From positions 1 through 64,000 of the IMG/VR virus record IMGVR_UViG_3300009370_002257: 64,000 nucleotides of DNA; one strand, given 5' to 3'. The DNA comes from a virus. Taxonomy: Duplodnaviria; Caudoviricetes. A program made the translations under genes and the position numbers. The notes under the pieces are model-generated. The model worked only from the letters and a program-made list of their open reading frames with translations, was not told the origin of the DNA and made no database searches. Below are positions 6,431 to 31,931 of this stretch, piece by piece (position 1 is the stretch's first letter; every line of letters starts with the position of its first letter).

Positions 6431-7969
6431 TTATTTCATTCCTTGAGGGAAGGTTAGTTCGTCCGCGTGGTTTACTGTCCAGCTAACCTCGTGCGTTACT
6501 GCTCTGAAGGTTCTTGCCGCACTCGGGAATCCGTTTCCGGATTTTTTAACCCCGCCAAACGCAAGGTGAGATTCGGCAGCGATAGAACCGCCGTTCCAGT
6601 AAATCATTCCTGCATCGCATTCATCTCGGAGGATTCGTGCTTTGCGAAAATCATTCGTAAGCACACCCACCGCCAAGCCATAGTCAGTATCGTTATAAAT
6701 ATTAATTCCATCTTCTAAAGTATCGAAAGGTATAATTGCTACGTGCGGCCCAAATACCTCGTCCCTAAGGTAGGGTGCTTGGCTTGCTTCGCGCCACTCA
6801 CTTTTATACACCATAGGGGTTGAATAAAAAGCCCTACCATTTACATCTTCGTATGTGGGCTCTAGTAAGACTTCTGCTTTCGGGTCTGCCAAGACCATGT
6901 CATTATACTCTTTTATTTTATTGAACCCCTGTCGGTTAATGATCGGCCCGTAATAGATATCTTCATCTGGCAGATAATCTTCCCAACAAATGGCATCTGG
7001 GGTTCCTGTCGAGCCGAAAACTTTGCGAAAGGGGTTTCCGGTTTTGAGCTTTGAGGCTTCTTGAGCGAACCTTCTGGCGAACTCGTCATAGATTGTTCTC
7101 TGTACCAACATCCTTCCGGAAGAAACGCAGCGCTGCCCTGAAAGCTTAAAGGCGCTAGCTACTGTGGCTGGCATGGTAAGGCTGTATTCTACATCGTCAA
7201 AAACAATACAGGCAGATTTACTTCCTAGCTCGCAGCTAGTAGTTTTATGCCAAGAGTCTGCAGCAACTCTACGAATATGTTGTCCGACCGCAGCAGAACC
7301 AGTAAAGCAAATATGATCGACACCAGCCCTAACCAGAACATCACCACTAGCCCCATCACCATGCACCAAATTAATGACTCCACGAGGCACGCCAGCTTCC
7401 TCATAGATTCGCACAGCCATTTGAGTTGACATCGGGGCATCTTCACTTGGTTTTATTACAATAGTGTTTCCTTCCACTAGCGCTGGGGCGGCATTCCAAA
7501 ACATCCCGATTGCCAGTGGAAAATTAAAAGGTGTTACAATAGCAATTACACCCTTGGGCTTACGAAGCATGTAGGCATCTTTGTCTGCGATTTCCGAAGA
7601 TACTGCCTCTCCGTGGGCGTACCTGCCCGATCCGAAAGCGAACTGAGCCATATGTAACGCCTCATTGACCTCTGCTATGCTTTCGTTAACGGTCTTGCCT
7701 GTCTCTAGGGAGATTACTTTCGCTAGTTCATCTTTTCTTTCCTCAATTATTTGGGCGACCCTATTTAAGTAGTCGGAGCGGGTGAAGCGGCTTACTTTTT
7801 TCCAAGTTTTAAAAGCTTCTCGCGCGGCGCTAACTGCTCTTAAAATTTCATCGTCTTGGGTAAGGGGGAATGCCCCTAAAGCCTTGCCCGTAGACGGGTT
7901 GAGCTTAGAATACATCGTCTCCGTACTCGTCCATTCCCCGTCTATGTAGTTTCTGCCTTCGTATTGCAT
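6431..7969 (-). CDS. NAD-dependent aldehyde dehydrogenase
   Basis: ITPFNFP, KPSE, FTGSAAVG, ELGSKSA (catalytic Glu), SGQRCVS (catalytic Cys), EVFGP, FGGVKKSGNG; likely start MQYEG at 7969. Confidence 0.95.
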   Translation of the reverse strand: MQYEGRNYIDGEWTSTETMYSKLNPSTGKALGAFPLTQDDEILRAVSAAREAFKTWKKVSRFTRSDYLNRVAQIIEERKDELAKVISLETGKTVNESIAEVNEALHMAQFAFGSGRYAHGEAVSSEIADKDAYMLRKPKGVIAIVTPFNFPLAIGMFWNAAPALVEGNTIVIKPSEDAPMSTQMAVRIYEEAGVPRGVINLVHGDGASGDVLVRAGVDHICFTGSAAVGQHIRRVAADSWHKTTSCELGSKSACIVFDDVEYSLTMPATVASAFKLSGQRCVSSGRMLVQRTIYDEFARRFAQEASKLKTGNPFRKVFGSTGTPDAICWEDYLPDEDIYYGPIINRQGFNKIKEYNDMVLADPKAEVLLEPTYEDVNGRAFYSTPMVYKSEWREASQAPYLRDEVFGPHVAIIPFDTLEDGINIYNDTDYGLAVGVLTNDFRKARILRDECDAGMIYWNGGSIAAESHLAFGGVKKSGNGFPSAARTFRAVTHEVSWTVNHADELTFPQGMK

Positions 7970-10032: not shown

Positions 10033-10120
10033 TGGTACCGAAGGAGGGACTCGAACCCTCATGGCTTGGCCAGCCGACAGATTTTAAGTCTGTTGTGTAT
10101 ACCAATTCCACCACTTCGGC
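10033..10120 (-). tRNA. tRNA-Leu(TAA)
   Basis: GCCGAAG/CTTCGGT acceptor, GGTGGAATTGGTATACAC D-arm, ACAGA-CTTAAAA-TCTGT anticodon arm, long variable arm, GGTTCGAGTCC T-arm, encoded CCA. Confidence 0.97.
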
Positions 10121-12274: not shown

Positions 12275-12351
12275 TGGTACTCTGGGTGGGGCTCGAACCC
12301 ACAACCCTCTGCTTAGAAGGCAGATGCTCTATCCAATTGAGCTACCAAAGC
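12275..12351 (-). tRNA. tRNA-Arg(TCT)
   Basis: GCTTTGG/CCAGAGT acceptor, TAGCTCAATTGGATAGAGC D-arm, TCTGC-CTTCTAA-GCAGA anticodon arm, GGTTCGAGCCC T-arm, encoded CCA. Confidence 0.97.
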
Positions 12352-13654: not shown

Positions 13655-13993
13655 CTATTTAATTTTTAATTCAAAAGATTTCGCAGATTGTTTTTTATTT
13701 ATTTTGATGTTCAACAAGCCATTTTCATACGCCACAGATGCGGTTTTTATATCCGCCTTCTTGGGTAAAAGTAGACTTCTTGAGTATACCCCTCCTTCCT
13801 GCTTTGCACTAACCTTAAGAATGTTATTATCAACAGTAAGGGTAATGTCCTCTTTCTTAAAGCCAGCTAGGTTAAAATCTACCTCGTAATGGGTCTCATG
13901 CTCGTCCCAGTGTGAATCAATTCTTGATTCGTAAGGGTAAACAAAAAAGTCATCTAGTAGTCTGTTCATATTTAATAATGTATTCATATACAA
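13655..13993 (-). CDS. Hsp20 / alpha-crystallin small heat shock protein
   Basis: NLAGFKKEDI.LTV.NNILKV, YSRSLLLP, ASVAYENGLLNI. Confidence 0.92.
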   Translation of the reverse strand: MYMNTLLNMNRLLDDFFVYPYESRIDSHWDEHETHYEVDFNLAGFKKEDITLTVDNNILKVSAKQEGGVYSRSLLLPKKADIKTASVAYENGLLNIKINKKQSAKSFELKIK

Positions 13994-14000
13994 ATACTAA

Positions 14001-14017
14001 AGCATGGATCGTGCCAA
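14001..14017 (-). promoter_or_regulatory. sigma54 (-24/-12) promoter upstream of hsp20
   Basis: TTGGCACGATCCATGCT, i.e. TGGCACG-N4-(A)TGCT with exact GG-N10-GC spacing. Confidence 0.7.
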
Positions 14018-14018
14018 T

Positions 14019-14044
14019 AAAAAAACCCCCCAAAAAGGGGGGTT
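14019..14044 (-). terminator. intrinsic terminator
   Basis: AACCCCCC / GGGGGGTT stem, 5-nt loop, T-run on the minus strand. Confidence 0.75.
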
Positions 14045-14098
14045 AACTATATCTATGAGCCAAGATGACTCTGGTATCCGGTGGTGTTTAGTGTGACA

Positions 14099-14263
14099 TT
14101 ATTTCTCTTGTATCTCTAGGTCTTCTCCGTCTTGCTTTTTCTTTTTGACTAATTCTTCAGCCTGTCTTTTCCCCTCTGATGTATAAGGAAAGGCTCCGTA
14201 TTTATAGCCCCTGTCCTTTGATACTACGAGGTAAAATTTTTTCTGTCTAGGCTTTCTTGGCAT
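14099..14263 (-). CDS. hypothetical protein (54 aa, not in ORF track)
   Basis: MPRKPRQKKFYLVVSKDRGYKYGAFPYTSEGKRQAEELVKKKKQDGEDLEIQEK; overlaps the upstream gene end. Confidence 0.55.
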   Translation of the reverse strand: MPRKPRQKKFYLVVSKDRGYKYGAFPYTSEGKRQAEELVKKKKQDGEDLEIQEK

Positions 14264-14525
14264 ATTGATTACTTATATAATCAATTTTCTCTGCCATTTT
14301 TTCTAATTTTTTCGAATCCGAATCGCTACCTCTTAGTAGGTTTTTAAAGGACTCTTCTAGGAGATTAAATCTTTGTTCTGAAAAGTGCTCTAGGTTCCGG
14401 GTGTTTTTTTCTATCAAATCTAGGTGGGTTTCTATAATGGATCGATTGATCTTTATTCGTTTTATAAGTTGCTTTAGGTCTCGCTCGAGTACTGCCGCCT
14501 CTTTCTTGGGGATGTTTGTGTTCAT
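14247..14525 (-). CDS. hypothetical coiled-coil protein
   Basis: 92 aa ORF with heptad-like Leu pattern. Confidence 0.65.
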   Translation of the reverse strand: MNTNIPKKEAAVLERDLKQLIKRIKINRSIIETHLDLIEKNTRNLEHFSEQRFNLLEESFKNLLRGSDSDSKKLEKMAEKIDYISNQYAKKA

Positions 14526-14534
14526 GGTTGATGA

Positions 14535-14876
14535 TTAATTACAGAGCTCTCCTAGCACCTCGTGTAAATCAATCTTTTTGAAAATTTCTTCCCCCATCTC
14601 ATCTATCATCTGATCCAGCTTAAAGCCTTCTGCGTGAGCCCACACCCATTTACTTAAATTTATAGAATACGCCACACAAAATTCCTGTAATGTCTTTGAC
14701 ACGTTCTGGTTTGATATATCTACAGACAGCACGCCGACGATAACTGCTCTATTTTTTTTCTCGTTCGCTACTATGGCCGAGTTTCCTTCTTCTGATGGGT
14801 TGGCTACTATGTAACACTTTGCGTCTGCTGCTTCTTGTAATATTTTATCTACTTCTCGTTCTAGGGTAATGTTCAT
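14535..14876 (-). CDS. hypothetical protein
   Basis: 113 aa ORF in a co-directional run. Confidence 0.65.
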   Translation of the reverse strand: MNITLEREVDKILQEAADAKCYIVANPSEEGNSAIVANEKKNRAVIVGVLSVDISNQNVSKTLQEFCVAYSINLSKWVWAHAEGFKLDQMIDEMGEEIFKKIDLHEVLGELCN

Positions 14877-21204: not shown

Positions 21205-21519
21205 TCAAAAGCTTAAAAATTCTAAATTATCGCTTTTTAAAATTATTTTTTCAGCTTGGTAGAAATCCTTTATTTCCCGCTTATTCTCAGGGGATAGGTA
21301 TATTGCCATAGATTTGTACCCAGATTCAAGCGAATCCTCCCTTGCCTTTCTGGTGCACCCGCAACCCTGCCCCAATGTCGCTGCTATATTTGCCCAATTA
21401 GTAAGCTGGGGGTTGTAGGAAAACTTACTTTCTCCGGACATGTTGACAAATAGCTTATAAAACTCAGCCCAGTTACTCAATGTAATGACTGAAGTGTTTT
21501 CCCTTAATGGTTCACTCAT
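21205..21519 (-). CDS. hypothetical protein
   Basis: 104 aa ORF with GCGC motif; ATGA overlap. Confidence 0.65.
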   Translation of the reverse strand: MSEPLRENTSVITLSNWAEFYKLFVNMSGESKFSYNPQLTNWANIAATLGQGCGCTRKAREDSLESGYKSMAIYLSPENKREIKDFYQAEKIILKSDNLEFLSF

Positions 21520-21872
21520 GCGCTTAACCCTTCAATGTATTCAAATAGCCTGAAAGCAACTAAGGATAATAAATAAACCACCGGTAGATTCATAAACCCA
21601 ACCCCCACACAGCACCCCAAAGAAAGCCAGAAAGAAACACAGGTCGGACAAGAGAGCAGCCTACTCAAGAAACAGTTCTTTTGGCAGAGCAAGAAGTTAG
21701 GATAGTTAGTAGAAAGGAGGGGGTCCTGCGCCCTGAATTCGTTAACATAAAAAAGCTTCCTGCAACCGAGAAGCTCTAGGTATTCAATAAATGCGTCACT
21801 CTTAAACCATATTATTAAGATTGTAACAATTAATGCAACGCAGAACAGTAAAACCTCGAAGCTTGCAAACAT
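21516..21872 (-). CDS. hypothetical membrane protein (DUF1360-like CPxC motif)
   Basis: LLSCPTCVSFW followed by hydrophobic helices. Confidence 0.6.
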   Translation of the reverse strand: MFASFEVLLFCVALIVTILIIWFKSDAFIEYLELLGCRKLFYVNEFRAQDPLLSTNYPNFLLCQKNCFLSRLLSCPTCVSFWLSLGCCVGVGFMNLPVVYLLSLVAFRLFEYIEGLSA

Positions 21873-21941
21873 ATAACATATTATCATGTATAATTTAAAA
21901 TTCTAGTAAATTTTCACATGGGATACTGCTTTTCGGAAATT

Positions 21942-21970
21942 AAAACACAAAACCCCCAAGTAGGGGGCTT
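21942..21970 (-). terminator. intrinsic terminator closing the candidate ncRNA
   Basis: AAGCCCCC-TACTT-GGGGGTT then TTGTGTTTT. Confidence 0.75.
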
Positions 21971-22306
21971 CATGAATTAACATGGTCTCTGCTTTTTCGG
22001 CCCAGTGTTTTACTTGATGGGACATTCAATGACCACGAATACGATCAGACAAAATCTGAAGCTACCTACCTTTGAACAGGTGGAGAAACTGTGCTTTAAA
22101 ACTCCTTACAGTAGCCAACCACAACACGCCGGGGCATTTGCGATAGCATTTAACTATCAGTTTTTTTTCGAGAGGCATTCACTCTCGCACGGACTCCTTT
22201 AGCTGTGAGTTTCCGCTCAGTCTTTCAGACTACTCTGACCCATAAGGTCTCACTAAAGGCAAACTCCACTGATTGCTCTCAGCGAGCTTAAACGGATTAC
22301 CGTTTT
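21942..22306 (-). ncRNA. candidate structured ncRNA of ~360 nt, family not recognised
   Basis: No credible ORF on the transcribed strand; flanked by a promoter and a terminator; at least 8 hairpins and a multibranch junction; G-U pairs favour the minus strand. Confidence 0.6.
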
Positions 22307-22310
22307 CATA

Positions 22311-22339
22311 GTTATAACCACATCTTTCGATATAGTCAA
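22311..22339 (-). promoter_or_regulatory. sigma70-type promoter of the candidate ncRNA
   Basis: TTGACT-17 nt-TATAAC just after the dut stop. Confidence 0.75.
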
Positions 22340-22347
22340 ATTAAAAA

Positions 22348-22836
22348 TTATTTACCAGTGCTCCCGAACCCACCAGAGCCCCTTTCGGAGTCAGATAAAC
22401 GGGCAGAAGGTTTCCAATCTACATCGTAGCATCTTTCTATGATAAGCTGAGCGATCCTGTCTCCCGAAGAAACCCTAAAGTCTAAAGGAGAACCAAATAG
22501 GGAACTATAGGCAGACATAGATGAATCAGGACGATGGATTAACCCTTCTGGTAGATTCAAATTAACAAGCACCACTCTCAAGCAGTCCCTATAACCAGAA
22601 TCAACTACGCCAGCAAGAACATCTATCCCATTTCTTACCGCCAACCCGCTGCGGGGGGCGATCCTACCATAATAACCCTCAGGTATCTCGACAGAGATGC
22701 CCACGGAAACGAGCTTCCTTTCCATAGGTTTAATTACGCAAGACTCCGTCGAGAAAAGATCGTAGCCAGCGTCAGACTCTTTAGCTCTAAGAGGCTGCTT
22801 TGCGGCAGTTTCTAATTTTTTAAATTTAATCTCCAT
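22348..22836 (-). CDS. dut: trimeric dUTPase with an insertion between motifs III and IV
   Basis: AGYDL, PRSGLA, GVVDSGYR, GDRIAQL, RGSGGFGSTG. Confidence 0.95.
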   Translation of the reverse strand: MEIKFKKLETAAKQPLRAKESDAGYDLFSTESCVIKPMERKLVSVGISVEIPEGYYGRIAPRSGLAVRNGIDVLAGVVDSGYRDCLRVVLVNLNLPEGLIHRPDSSMSAYSSLFGSPLDFRVSSGDRIAQLIIERCYDVDWKPSARLSDSERGSGGFGSTGK

Positions 22837-23230
22837 AATGATGAAGGTCTAAACCAAATTCCTTAGCGATGGATAACGAGGAGTCGTCTCTATCATAAAA
22901 TTTTTTAAAAATAATTTTCTCAACCCCATACGCTGCCGCCAGCTTCAAGCAGTCGTTGCATGGGAGCAGATTGCAGGCAAGTAAATAACATTCACCCGGG
23001 CGGGCATACCTAAGAGCGTTAACTTCAGCGTGAATAACCCTTGCCCGCCTCTGGTCACGATTGGACCAATCTATATTTACATCTTTAGGCGCACCGTTAT
23101 AACCTAATCCAGCCACGCTATGGTCGTGGCGAAGCACACACGAGCCCACTTGCTCGTAGGGGTCTTCGCTCCTACGCGAGGCAATAATGGCAAGCTCTAA
23201 GGCGTATTCTTCCCAAGATAATCTTTTCAT
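22826..23230 (-). CDS. dCMP deaminase
   Basis: RSEDP..QVGSC, GYNG, HAEVNAL, PCNDC. Confidence 0.93.
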   Translation of the reverse strand: MKRLSWEEYALELAIIASRRSEDPYEQVGSCVLRHDHSVAGLGYNGAPKDVNIDWSNRDQRRARVIHAEVNALRYARPGECYLLACNLLPCNDCLKLAAAYGVEKIIFKKFYDRDDSSLSIAKEFGLDLHHYGD

Positions 23231-23267
23231 TTTCTTTGAAATAGTAGTGTTTTTTTTTAAAATAGTT

Positions 23268-23708
23268 ATGACAATTTTAACTGCTTCCGCAAAACTCTAT
23301 GAGTGGTTCACAGAAAACGATAGCTTCTGCCTTGAATATGACTTTAACAAGCTTTTCCAAGAAGATCAAGACAAAGATAGGGAAAGCGCGTGCGTTATAA
23401 ACGCCTTAGAGCAGTTTAACGAAATGCAATTTACTTCTTCTGCGGAAGTGGGCGGCAGAAAGGTATGGACCCTAAGGAGGCCCCTGAATTCGCTCCCCCA
23501 AACCGTTGAGCTTGGCCCGGACGCATGCCTTCAAATCTCTCACGTGATTAATGGGTTCTCCGAATACATAGGGGATGATTCCAGTATGTGTGATCCAGCA
23601 AACATCTCAGAGGTTAATGTCTTGACATTAGTGACAATTTGCGCTACTCTAATAAAAGACAAGACGGAAGAAGATGCAAACGACACAGGACTGCTCGACG
23701 GAATATAA
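23268..23708 (+). CDS. hypothetical protein
   Basis: Likely start MTILTAS at 23268 (upstream part of the track ORF overlaps the dCMP deaminase). Confidence 0.65.
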   Translation: MTILTASAKLYEWFTENDSFCLEYDFNKLFQEDQDKDRESACVINALEQFNEMQFTSSAEVGGRKVWTLRRPLNSLPQTVELGPDACLQISHVINGFSEYIGDDSSMCDPANISEVNVLTLVTICATLIKDKTEEDANDTGLLDGI

Positions 23709-24369: not shown

Positions 24370-24814
24370 AGGCATTATGGCGGACCTTAGCGGTCCAGCC
24401 AAAATCCCTCAGGTCATCCCAATTTATGCCCACGTAAGCGTGGATTTCGTAAAACTAAACCGAAAATACATAGAGGCTCAGGAGCTAATAGACTCGACAG
24501 ACGCCTTTAAAGGAGCGGTTGAAGACCTTCGCTTTAATTATTTAATTTATGTTTTTAAGGATATAAGTGCTAACCCCAAGAATTTAATAACCATTGAGTA
24601 CGTCATAAGCGAAAAGGGAAATGAGGAAAACCCCTTTATAGAGACGTACAACGTACCTCCGGAAAAACGAAAATTAATATCTAAGTACGCAAGTACCCCA
24701 CTCAGGGTTTTCGAAACCGAAGGTAAGCACCAAAACATACTTCTCTTTAAAGAGCAATGCCCCATGACTCTGGATAGCTTTAAGGAGTTGATAAGAACAT
24801 GGGCAAAGTCGTAA
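24335..24814 (+). CDS. hypothetical protein
   Basis: 159 aa ORF overlapping both neighbours. Confidence 0.65.
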   Translation: MSLEESNWKNIKGIMADLSGPAKIPQVIPIYAHVSVDFVKLNRKYIEAQELIDSTDAFKGAVEDLRFNYLIYVFKDISANPKNLITIEYVISEKGNEENPFIETYNVPPEKRKLISKYASTPLRVFETEGKHQNILLFKEQCPMTLDSFKELIRTWAKS

Positions 24815-25401
24815 AAATAACAGAAGACGTAACGCTAGTCAAGAGAGTCAAGAGAAGGAAGTGTGACAAGAGCCTCAAAGAACTAATAAACAGGCACTCT
24901 CCCCTGTGTTACGATATATATAAAAAATATTCTTCAGCAATGCAGTCTTCAGGCATTTGTTTGGCGGACATATACGGAGAAAAGGACTACATAGTCTACA
25001 AGTCTGCAATGAGTTTTAATCCAGACAAGAAAACTAAATTCTCCACGTGGCTCGGAAACCAAGTCAGATATTACTGCCTGAACCTGATAAACAGCAACAA
25101 ACACGTGTGCGTAGGGGATCAAAATCTTGATTTTTATGTCGATCAAAAAACCGAAAGGGATAGAGAGGAGGTTAAAAGTGAAGTAGAGTATATATTTAAT
25201 TTACTAGACCAACTGCAGGATAAAAGAATCAAAAAAATATTTAAACTTAGATATTTTCAAGGTGCAAAAATAAAAATGCCTTGGGTTAAAGTAGCCAAAG
25301 AACTCAACGTAAGCACCCAAACAGCCATAAACCTCCACAATAAAGGGGTAGACATAGTATTCAAAAAAGTTAAGAGCACAGCCCTTTCAGATTTTCTTTA
25401 A
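24799..25401 (+). CDS. phage sigma70-family factor
   Basis: SFNPDKKTKFSTW (region 2.3); KIFKLRYF...WVKVAKELNVSTQT (region 4 HTH). Confidence 0.8.
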   Translation: MGKVVKITEDVTLVKRVKRRKCDKSLKELINRHSPLCYDIYKKYSSAMQSSGICLADIYGEKDYIVYKSAMSFNPDKKTKFSTWLGNQVRYYCLNLINSNKHVCVGDQNLDFYVDQKTERDREEVKSEVEYIFNLLDQLQDKRIKKIFKLRYFQGAKIKMPWVKVAKELNVSTQTAINLHNKGVDIVFKKVKSTALSDFL

Positions 25402-30819: not shown

Positions 30820-31323
30820 ATGAAAATGAAAAACATAATGCTAGGTGCATTTGCACTAATGATAGTTGGTTGTAACGCAACCAAGGAATACCCGTATAAT
30901 GCGGTCAGAGTGGGAGAGACAGGCGCGGACGCTATGACCGTAGACCTTGCTCCTGTTGTAACCGCTCAGGCAAAAATGCCCGAACTCACCGTAGGCACAG
31001 GCTCTTTCGAGCATGGACTGGCCAACGCTGGGCTAGGAAAAAGCCTAACGGCAAACGTGCCATTCGTGGCGGTAGACGTACCCGTACCCTCTGTGGTCAT
31101 CGGTCCAAAGAACTTCAACGCGACAGTAGGCGCGGAGAATTCTGTGACTATTGGCTCATTGACGGTCGGTCAAAATCTACCCAGCATCGGCATCGGGACA
31201 GACGTTAACAAGGAAAAGGTCTTTGACCTTACATTGAAGGGGGGTGTTGGAGTTACTGTGCCACTCATCTCCTTGTATGTTCCTTGGCCGACGTTAAATA
31301 CCGGCGGCGATACGGAAGAATAG
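30820..31323 (+). CDS. hypothetical lipoprotein
   Basis: MKMKNIMLGAFALMIVGC lipobox-like signal; beta-rich Val/Gly/Thr body. Confidence 0.65.
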   Translation: MKMKNIMLGAFALMIVGCNATKEYPYNAVRVGETGADAMTVDLAPVVTAQAKMPELTVGTGSFEHGLANAGLGKSLTANVPFVAVDVPVPSVVIGPKNFNATVGAENSVTIGSLTVGQNLPSIGIGTDVNKEKVFDLTLKGGVGVTVPLISLYVPWPTLNTGGDTEE

Positions 31324-31348
31324 AAGACCCCTCATAAGGTGTGAACAC

Positions 31349-31374
31349 CCCCCGATTTATTCGGGGGTTTTTTT
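31349..31374 (+). terminator. intrinsic terminator
   Basis: CCCCCGA-TTTAT-TCGGGGG followed by T7. Confidence 0.85.
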
Positions 31375-31458
31375 ATACCGAACTATCTCCATCTATCGTG
31401 TCGCCATATTTTCCAAAATACAATAGGCGCAATTATCAATGTTAATATTATTATTAAG

Positions 31459-31644
31459 TTATCCATCTTTTATTTTCTTCTTTACTTCTTCGAGGAACTC
31501 GTCCGTACCCACGAACCTAGAGTCGCAACTCGAATTTACACAACGCCATATATTGCAGCCAGACTCCTCGTGTATAGTCCTAGGCATACACTTTAACCTG
31601 TTCTTTGCGTCAGGAAAACAATATGGGCATGCATAATAGTGCAT
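31459..31644 (-). CDS. small Zn-finger-like hypothetical protein
   Basis: CPYC...CVNSSC; ATG 3 nt after a GTGTAAATAT motif. Confidence 0.65.
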   Translation of the reverse strand: MHYYACPYCFPDAKNRLKCMPRTIHEESGCNIWRCVNSSCDSRFVGTDEFLEEVKKKIKDG

Positions 31645-31651
31645 ATTATAT

Positions 31652-31675
31652 TTACACTTCCCGTGTAATTATAAG
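31652..31675. promoter_or_regulatory. back-to-back GTGTAA motifs (TTACAC-N5-GTGTAA) between divergent genes
   Basis: TTACAC ttccc GTGTAATTATAAG. Confidence 0.55.
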
Positions 31676-31703
31676 TGACCTCGCTGTACGGGGTTAAATT
31701 GTT

Positions 31704-31931
31704 ATGAGAAGAAAACGTAGAAAAACAGTGAAAAAGTGGCATACGAACTTATGGAATAGGTTTATGTCGCTTTATAAGGGAGTAAAATCACACGTAACTC
31801 ACATTGGGTGCTGGGAAGGCCTAGGTCTTGTAGTTCTAGGCGGCGGCGCTCTAATGGGTTGCTTGAGTTTGTCCTTGACTGTTGGCTTGCCCATGGTGTA
31901 CGTGGGTGTTAAGAAATTATTACATAAATAA
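31704..31931 (+). CDS. hypothetical membrane protein
   Basis: Basic N-terminus plus a hydrophobic hairpin. Confidence 0.6.
   Translation: MRRKRRKTVKKWHTNLWNRFMSLYKGVKSHVTHIGCWEGLGLVVLGGGALMGCLSLSLTVGLPMVYVGVKKLLHK

Follow-up and report, generated by a model that had tools for sequence, protein, structure and literature searches.

A predicted pseudoknotted non-coding RNA of about 365 nt encoded beside the dUTPase gene of uncultured marine phages

Large RNAs with a density of conserved tertiary structure like that described here are rare, and most of the known ones proved to be ribozymes, riboswitches, cores of ribonucleoprotein particles or, recently, RNA-only cages. In the packaging RNA of phage phi29 (pRNA), the covarying loop-loop pairs are intermolecular. 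ROOL and GOLLD are large ornate RNAs of phages and prophages, and some of their predicted long-range pairs likewise proved intermolecular in RNA-only assemblies (PMC12286853, PMC5737381). Fremin, Bhatt and Kyrpides (2023) reported candidate structured RNAs of IMG/VR viruses, including 8,495 unnamed DNA-virus candidates, with lengths of 29-151 nt (PMC10690425).

The RNA gene that we describe lies in a 64,000-nt stretch of DNA from an uncultured tailed phage (positions 1 to 64,000 of the IMG/VR record IMGVR_UViG_3300009370_002257, hereafter the window). Its predicted product resembles ROOL and GOLLD in being phage-borne, hundreds of nucleotides long, rich in covariation-backed helices and pseudoknots, and endowed with highly conserved unpaired nucleotides; the function of all three is not established. 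It differs from them in matching their Rfam models neither in sequence nor in structure, in its size (~365 nt, against ~580 and 800), in being found in marine viral contigs only, and in having a repeat, S7/S8, around its terminator. Moreover, ROOL and GOLLD often adjoin tRNA genes, whereas none of the 24 loci examined for the new family has an adjacent tRNA, the nearest being kilobases off. The likeness to phi29 pRNA is that both are phage-encoded and structured, and it would extend to an early promoter and action in trans if our proposal below holds; yet the new RNA does not match the Rfam model of pRNA, is twice its size and comes from a different type of phage. Finally, the data source and the kind of evidence, covariation in viral intergenic regions, are those of the IMG/VR survey (PMC10690425). 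Pieces of the RNA may be among its unnamed candidates, but the full 365-nt architecture is not described there, because these candidates do not exceed 151 nt.

A 460-nt stretch without credible ORF separates the dUTPase gene (dut; 22348-22836, PF00692, E 7e-31) from a 123-aa ORF located downstream of the RNA (21516-21887), both on the minus strand. A first-pass annotation, made from the sequence alone, had placed in this gap an unrecognised structured non-coding RNA (22339-21942, minus strand) made of a chain of hairpins with its own promoter and terminator, all of which are present. The promoter is read directly in the minus strand as a -35 hexamer TTGACT (22334-22339), a 17-nt spacer and a -10 hexamer TATAAC (22311-22316); our promoter consensus scan skipped it because its rule demands that the second hexamer end in T. 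What had been described as a GC hairpin followed by a U-tract is an intrinsic terminator with a 12-pair stem, a CCCCC/GGGGG core and a U-tract (21974-21946, minus strand). These two signals delimit a predicted primary transcript of ~365 nt (21942-22305, minus strand).

The fold of the minus strand has a minimum free energy (MFE) of -114.1 kcal/mol (z = -2.9, with 0 of 100 shuffles as good), and that of the plus strand an MFE of -88.8 (z = -1.4). G-U pairs are common in the covarying helices (e.g. GU:26, UG:22 and GU:37 at single pairs), in line with the earlier observation that wobble pairs work on the minus strand only. On the plus strand these pairs would turn into A-C mismatches, which identifies the minus strand as that of the RNA. 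Taken with the comparative evidence given below, the sequences establish that the gap downstream of dut is a real gene for a predicted pseudoknotted RNA, and that this gene is new, single-copy, non-coding and highly structured.

We counted as known any RNA whose covariance-model score reached the gathering score of one of the 4227 families of Rfam 15. These models include tRNA, tmRNA, RNase P, SRP, 6S, group I and II introns, ROOL and GOLLD, as well as HEARO, OLE, raiA, IMES, pRNA, riboswitches and small ribozymes. The cmscan search assigned no Rfam family to the RNA region at gathering score on either strand, and up to an E-value of 10 there was nothing in the RNA and only a 10-bit chance match outside it. 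The first-pass annotation could not assign the RNA to tRNA, tmRNA, RNase P, SRP, 6S or a known ribozyme, and rightly so: the ribozyme models and all other models of Rfam 15 are blank for it, as is ARAGORN, with 0 tRNA or tmRNA genes in 21700-22600. Fourteen homologues gave only scattered sub-threshold matches to Rfam (16-25 bits); three of these, at 22-25 bits, were to the rnk leader, which is terminator-like and has a gathering score of 55. In the window, two tRNAs (10036-10120 and 12278-12351) were the sole Rfam matches at gathering score. Although the first-pass annotation had called the gap downstream of dut the largest gene-free one in the window, there are two further gaps of ~540-560 nt between ORFs of at least 100 aa (13993-14535 and 31323-31882), and these thus contained no Rfam family at this score. 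Elsewhere in the family, a T-arm-like string upstream of the RNA in contigs L126, L177 and L116 is not a tRNA according to ARAGORN, and the same program called a tmRNA with a 30-residue tag on another contig carrying the RNA (L168, 9572-9978, plus strand), which may be a false call.

Might the gap instead code for a small protein, or be a stretch of conserved DNA with a chance fold? ORFs of 38-65 aa can be drawn in it, and the 18-codon ATG frame noted at first does exist in the window; it is not conserved, however, and its ATG is absent from the homologues. Across the family there are ~7 stops in each sense frame, codon periodicity is not clear (column entropy of 1.09, 1.09 and 0.99 by phase), and gap runs are mostly not multiples of three. 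Compensatory changes also affect more than 40 pairs, well above shuffled and slid controls. We give this alternative virtually no weight and consider coding or chance explanations excluded.

Covariation among homologues, which the first-pass annotation proposed to examine, is abundant, with compensatory changes preserving about a dozen helices and two pseudoknots. RNAalifold, applied to 24 sequences, predicted 39 pairs, of which 31 have such changes; the helices and a set of long-range pairs also emerged from a G-test/APC scan of 78 sequences. We also drew by hand a core structure of 29 pairs, including the pseudoknot PK1, and evaluated it on 65 sequences. Standard pairs form in 93.3% of its cells, compared with 72.9% in shuffled controls and 36-44% when the partners are slid; 430 cells changed on both sides (138 in shuffled controls), and the covariation score is 0.638, against 0.240 for shuffled and 0.08-0.14 for slid partners. 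Outside the core, P1 and P2 together are 84.6% paired, against 75.7% in the controls, and have 77 double-change cells against 25. For P11 and PK2 the corresponding values, from an alignment that is not structure-aware, are 70.6% against 62.1% and 63 against 21.

The hairpins named in the first-pass annotation, i.e. those called P1, P4, P5, P9 and P10 below and one at 22268-22283, are all found, and so is its multibranch element. Read from the 5' end on the minus strand, the RNA starts with hairpin P1 (AAACGG/CCGTTT, 22290-22305), whose inner pairs vary between AU, GC and CG in a compensatory manner. Hairpin P2 (CTCGCTGA ... TCAGTGGAG, 22264-22287) has six of seven pairs changing on both sides and 87.8% of cells paired; its top covariation pair is 22281-22270. 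The multibranch domain that follows (22196-22259), closed by CCTTTAG/CTAAAGG (22259-22253 with 22202-22196), contains three small hairpins in the window copy. Its closing pairs covary (alignment columns 67-69 with 163-165), yet it is the variable part of the molecule: its interior differs between subfamilies and is in most homologues unlike the window copy. In hairpin P4 (CGAGAG/CTCTCG, 22169-22187) the stem sequence differs in each homologue while complementarity is kept, as judged by alignment with no pair count.

The core begins with the 5' strand of PK1 (AAAC, 22160-22163), at the end of a run of A, which pairs with 22089-22086. Two of its pairs switch from AU to GC (32/23 and 34/31 sequences), giving the variants AAAC/GUUU, GGAC/GUCC, AGAC/GUCU and GAAC/GUUC, and the pseudoknot is 95.8% paired with a covariation score of 94. 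Hairpin P5 (GATAG/CTATC with a 7-nt loop, 22142-22158) is 98.5% paired, with all five pairs changing on both sides. In the two-pair helix P6 (GC/GC, 22128-22141), 99.2% paired, both pairs covary around the conserved loop AAAUGCCCCG, whose CCC is invariant. The strongest covariation in the whole RNA is found in P7 (GGCTACT/AGTAGCT, 22060-22116; six of seven pairs change on both sides, 97.6% paired), a long-range helix that encloses P8 and P9 and whose 5' strand is followed by an invariant GUAA. P8 (GGAG/CUCC, 22082-22105), present once in the window, has a near-invariant 16-nt loop, UUUUnAAGCACAGUUU, the last four nucleotides of which (22089-22086) are the partner strand of PK1. The short hairpin P9 (22068-22081), followed by a conserved GGUAG, is weak: one pair is invariant and the other is paired in 30 of 65 sequences. 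Besides the GUAA, the GGUAG and the CCC of the P6 loop, the invariant unpaired nucleotides of the core comprise AAGCACAG and GCCCCGGCGUG.

Downstream of the core, hairpin P10 (TCAGA/TCTGA, 22045-22059) has five of five pairs changing on both sides. It is followed by segment J (CGUGGUC, 22037-22031) and by hairpin P11 (22030-22013), whose loop GUCCCA is the 5' strand of PK2. The 3' strand of this second pseudoknot (UGGG, 22001-22004) gives 77% of paired cells, with double changes in three of four pairs. By analogy with the ROOL and GOLLD assemblies, the pairing in PK1 and PK2 could be intermolecular.

How widespread is this RNA? A search with the dUTPase protein retrieved 80 IMG/VR loci with 43-59% amino-acid identity; according to nhmmer, eight or nine of these contain the non-coding element (E 1e-27 to 1e-7), and there is one additional weak match (L026, E 0.01). 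Homologues next to dut in related phages, looked for on the advice of the first-pass annotation, thus exist. As the element is found where the flanking dUTPase has diverged to about half identity, the RNA is conserved at the DNA level, and these comparisons show its sequence to be much better conserved than its protein neighbours. A degenerate core pattern matched 18 IMG/VR stretches and at least 80 metagenome stretches, whose record names (Tara, deep-sea and other ocean series) read as marine; it was absent from 185,579 prokaryote species, each represented by a single genome. GenBank phages gave no DNA match to the RNA stretch. Profile searches in IMG/VR and marine metagenome contigs brought the family to at least 110 homologous stretches, of which 98 are full length and 78 distinct. 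A covariance model restricted to the core (134 positions) has a single match in the window (132 bits) and one in each of three viral records, including a 162-kb record that is ~96% complete.

The family was previously unclassified and, as far as the collections show, occurs only in a single lineage of uncultured marine tailed phages with large genomes (~160 kb). The sequencing runs in which the RNA stretch occurs are marine DNA runs only, none being from RNA. The window phage encodes a DnaE-type polymerase, DnaB, a ribonucleotide reductase, a sigma-like protein and many glycosyltransferases, and its polymerase is no closer than ~31% to that of any deposited phage. The Gp23 and Gp20 markers of a T4-like affiliation were unmatched in three records, but control genomes likewise gave no match, so that little follows from this. 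Three contigs without a clear family member (L036, L037 and L009, at 6476-6600 on the plus strand) have weak full-length matches to the core model, of 15-17 bits and ~2 kb downstream of dut, which share the A-run and a UUUUAAG-containing loop; they are possibly a very distant relative, or chance.

The transcription signals are conserved along with the RNA. Homology between members starts ~3-6 nt downstream of the TATAAC hexamer, and a sigma-70-type match of at least 9/12 lies just upstream of 50 of 76 members, compared with 7% of control windows, with a TTGAC -35 as best match upstream of 47 of the 76. The members without a promoter may be co-transcribed with the upstream gene. The terminator is found throughout the family. 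The genes around the RNA, in contrast, change, and it occurs in at least four contexts. In the window it follows dut and precedes a ~120-aa membrane protein. In a second context it lies between a ~140-aa protein of unknown function and a dNMP-kinase-like gene, which in the window are adjacent on the other strand with no RNA between them. In a third it faces divergent dut and dCMP deaminase genes, and there are further ones. Such movement fits an independent RNA gene, and the early claim of an independent phage RNA is in this respect well supported.

The RNA might instead be a cis-acting attenuator, i.e. a riboswitch-like or factor-sensing leader. In the MFE structure of the 3' domain, J pairs with 21986-21980, the 3' part of a repeat copy called S7 that precedes the terminator, and this complementarity is specific: -9.3 kcal/mol for J with the partner of its own genome against -6.6 with the partners of others (mean rank 0.21). 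The 3' arm of the terminator is specifically complementary to the same stretch (-9.4 against -7.0 kcal/mol), and the two compete for at least five nucleotides in 44 of 54 copies. The large fold would sense a ligand or protein and thereby decide which of the two, J or the 3' arm, occupies the 5' arm of the terminator, and this would set how much transcription from the early promoter reads through into the downstream genes. In agreement with this mechanism, the downstream genes are co-directional in 54 of 59 cases, the neighbours include genes of nucleotide metabolism, and the second repeat copy, S8, is conserved beyond the terminator. Like attenuators, riboswitches and the put RNA of phage HK022, the RNA directly follows a sigma-70-type promoter, and it ends in a terminator whose 5' arm is predicted to have an alternative partner further upstream.

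Several observations speak against an attenuator. A riboswitch or cis-acting leader would occupy a fixed place before one coherent gene set, with no separate promoter between them, whereas here the downstream gene differs between contexts (membrane protein, dNMP-kinase-like protein, 241-aa protein and others), is convergent in the remaining 5 of the 59 cases, and has, in 38 of 46 co-directional cases, a promoter-like site of its own, with a -10 that ends ~10-15 nt before the start codon. The ~300 nt that precede the terminator are far more than in most riboswitch aptamers, the nearest in size being T-box and cobalamin elements. Moreover, the J:S7 helix and the terminator coexist in the MFE structure of the window copy. 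The competition between J and the terminator and the conservation of S8 make the attenuator the main rival explanation, though an unlikely one. We favor a stand-alone RNA, because it has its own promoter and terminator, its neighbours change, and these neighbours have promoters of their own.

The repeat around the terminator is a separate puzzle. Copy S7 (CCGAAAAAGCAGAGACCATGT, 21980-22000, minus strand) stands just before the terminator and copy S8 (CCGAAAAGCAGTATCCCATGT, 21916-21936, minus strand) downstream of it; the latter accompanies the RNA gene in every context, including those with a convergent next gene. This direct repeat is 21-26 nt long and both copies change together between genomes: the alignment score of S7 and S8 is 26.4 within a genome, 17.5 between S7 and the S8 of another genome, and 14.4 for shuffles. 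In every case S7 carries an additional base behind its third nucleotide. We know of no described counterpart to a repeat that flanks a terminator and changes in step between genomes. Judging from the complementarities above, the predicted pairing with J explains part of S7. No such account is available for S8: its pairing with J is not supported, sliding 25-nt windows along the RNA revealed no partner of S7/S8 with a self-versus-cross advantage (best at 22125-22101, rank 0.34-0.36), and neither copy has specific complementarity to the U-rich 3' arm of the terminator. S8 is not a general promoter or operator of the phage, as it is unique in the 64 kb. That S8 is conserved beyond the terminator hints at a role for read-through transcripts or for the DNA as such. 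Within the terminator stem, the C5/G5 core (21963-21967 and 21953-21957) is also nearly invariant across the family, although such stems usually drift freely.

S7 and S8 could be donor and target sequences, the RNA being a guide, bridge or omega-type component of a system for mobility or recombination, which would explain the movement of the cassette between intergenic sites. The co-variation of a sequence inside the RNA with one just outside it, and the presence of the module (promoter, terminator and S8) at different sites in related phages, speak for such a system. But the scanned neighbours (Pfam and PHROGs) include no reverse transcriptase, transposase, recombinase or nuclease family, the RNA is single-copy in the window and in the three viral records, no third copy of the repeat occurs at the promoter or 5' boundary, and Rfam reveals no match to HEARO or other guide scaffolds. 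We regard this explanation as very improbable.

The position of the gene raises another alternative. A divergent strand switch at ~23200 divides the window, with minus-strand genes pointing left and plus-strand genes pointing right for ~40 kb. The cumulative GC skew has its minimum at the same place. The RNA lies 0.6-2 kb from such a switch and local minimum both here and in two further long viral records. It might accordingly be an origin-associated RNA, a structured pre-primer or an R-loop-forming transcript comparable to ColE1 RNA II or the T4 origin transcripts, which are likewise structured, have their own promoter and lie near a strand switch and skew minimum; the two co-varying direct repeats and the nearly invariant hairpin between them would then be origin elements at the DNA level. 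Yet GC skew follows gene orientation, so that its minimum gives no independent location of an origin and marks a region of early promoters at least as well. One record has two divergent switch points, the repeats are only two, and selection acts on RNA pairing, G-U pairs included; no initiator gene or AT-rich element for unwinding was noticed next to the RNA. The conventional terminator at the end of the window RNA also sets it apart from ColE1 RNA II and the T4 transcripts. An origin-associated role thus seems highly unlikely to us.

Our preferred explanation is that the gene probably encodes a stand-alone, early, trans-acting folded RNA that works through its conserved pseudoknotted core. 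The host RNA polymerase would transcribe it early in infection, from the region in which the two divergent blocks of genes begin, and the terminated RNA would act in trans as a compact folded particle. Its functional site would be the core, a three-way junction of P7, P8 and P9 locked by PK1 and displaying the invariant unpaired nucleotides. This core may recognise a ligand or a protein, act as a catalyst, or drive the RNA to assemble with itself, as ROOL and GOLLD do. A peripheral role would fall to the multibranch domain near the 5' end, and the 3' domain (P11, PK2, the J:S7 helix and the terminator) would set 3' end formation and stability. A more ambitious version, which we put forward tentatively and find somewhat doubtful, is that abundant ocean phages use a new class of large functional RNA, which would be a ribozyme or would assemble, early in infection, with itself or with host machinery, and that the S7/S8 repeat reflects an undescribed control of 3' ends or isoforms.

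Whatever its function, the RNA is a tractable new target of ~365 nt for structural biology, and with roughly one hundred natural variants available, a covariance model can be built, R-scape statistics computed and constructs designed. Almost nothing is known of the uncultured marine phages that carry it, and to phage biology it offers a marker of a widespread ocean lineage and a way into its early programme.

Some features of the neighbourhood deserve mention in their own right. The genes around the RNA encode nucleotide-metabolism enzymes, a sigma-like protein, glycosyltransferases and unknowns (Pfam and PHROGs). The protein at 23187-23708 (cluster c0) was considered as a partner of the RNA and discarded: it has no Pfam or PHROG family, its atlas scores (at most 0.81) are uninformative, and it is absent from the L005-type context. 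A 200-aa protein (24799-25401, plus strand) has weak matches to sigma-70 region 2 and to PHROG families of sigma factors and regulators, and in the type B context its homologues (cluster c5) are found two to four genes after the RNA. Finally, a TTGnnn-17-TATAAT motif usually precedes the gene that follows the RNA, with no Shine-Dalgarno sequence, as in the window (21888-21915) and in L055, L084, L100 and other contigs. Since its -10 ends ~10 nt before the start codon, this arrangement suggests that leaderless or nearly leaderless mRNAs occur in this phage lineage.
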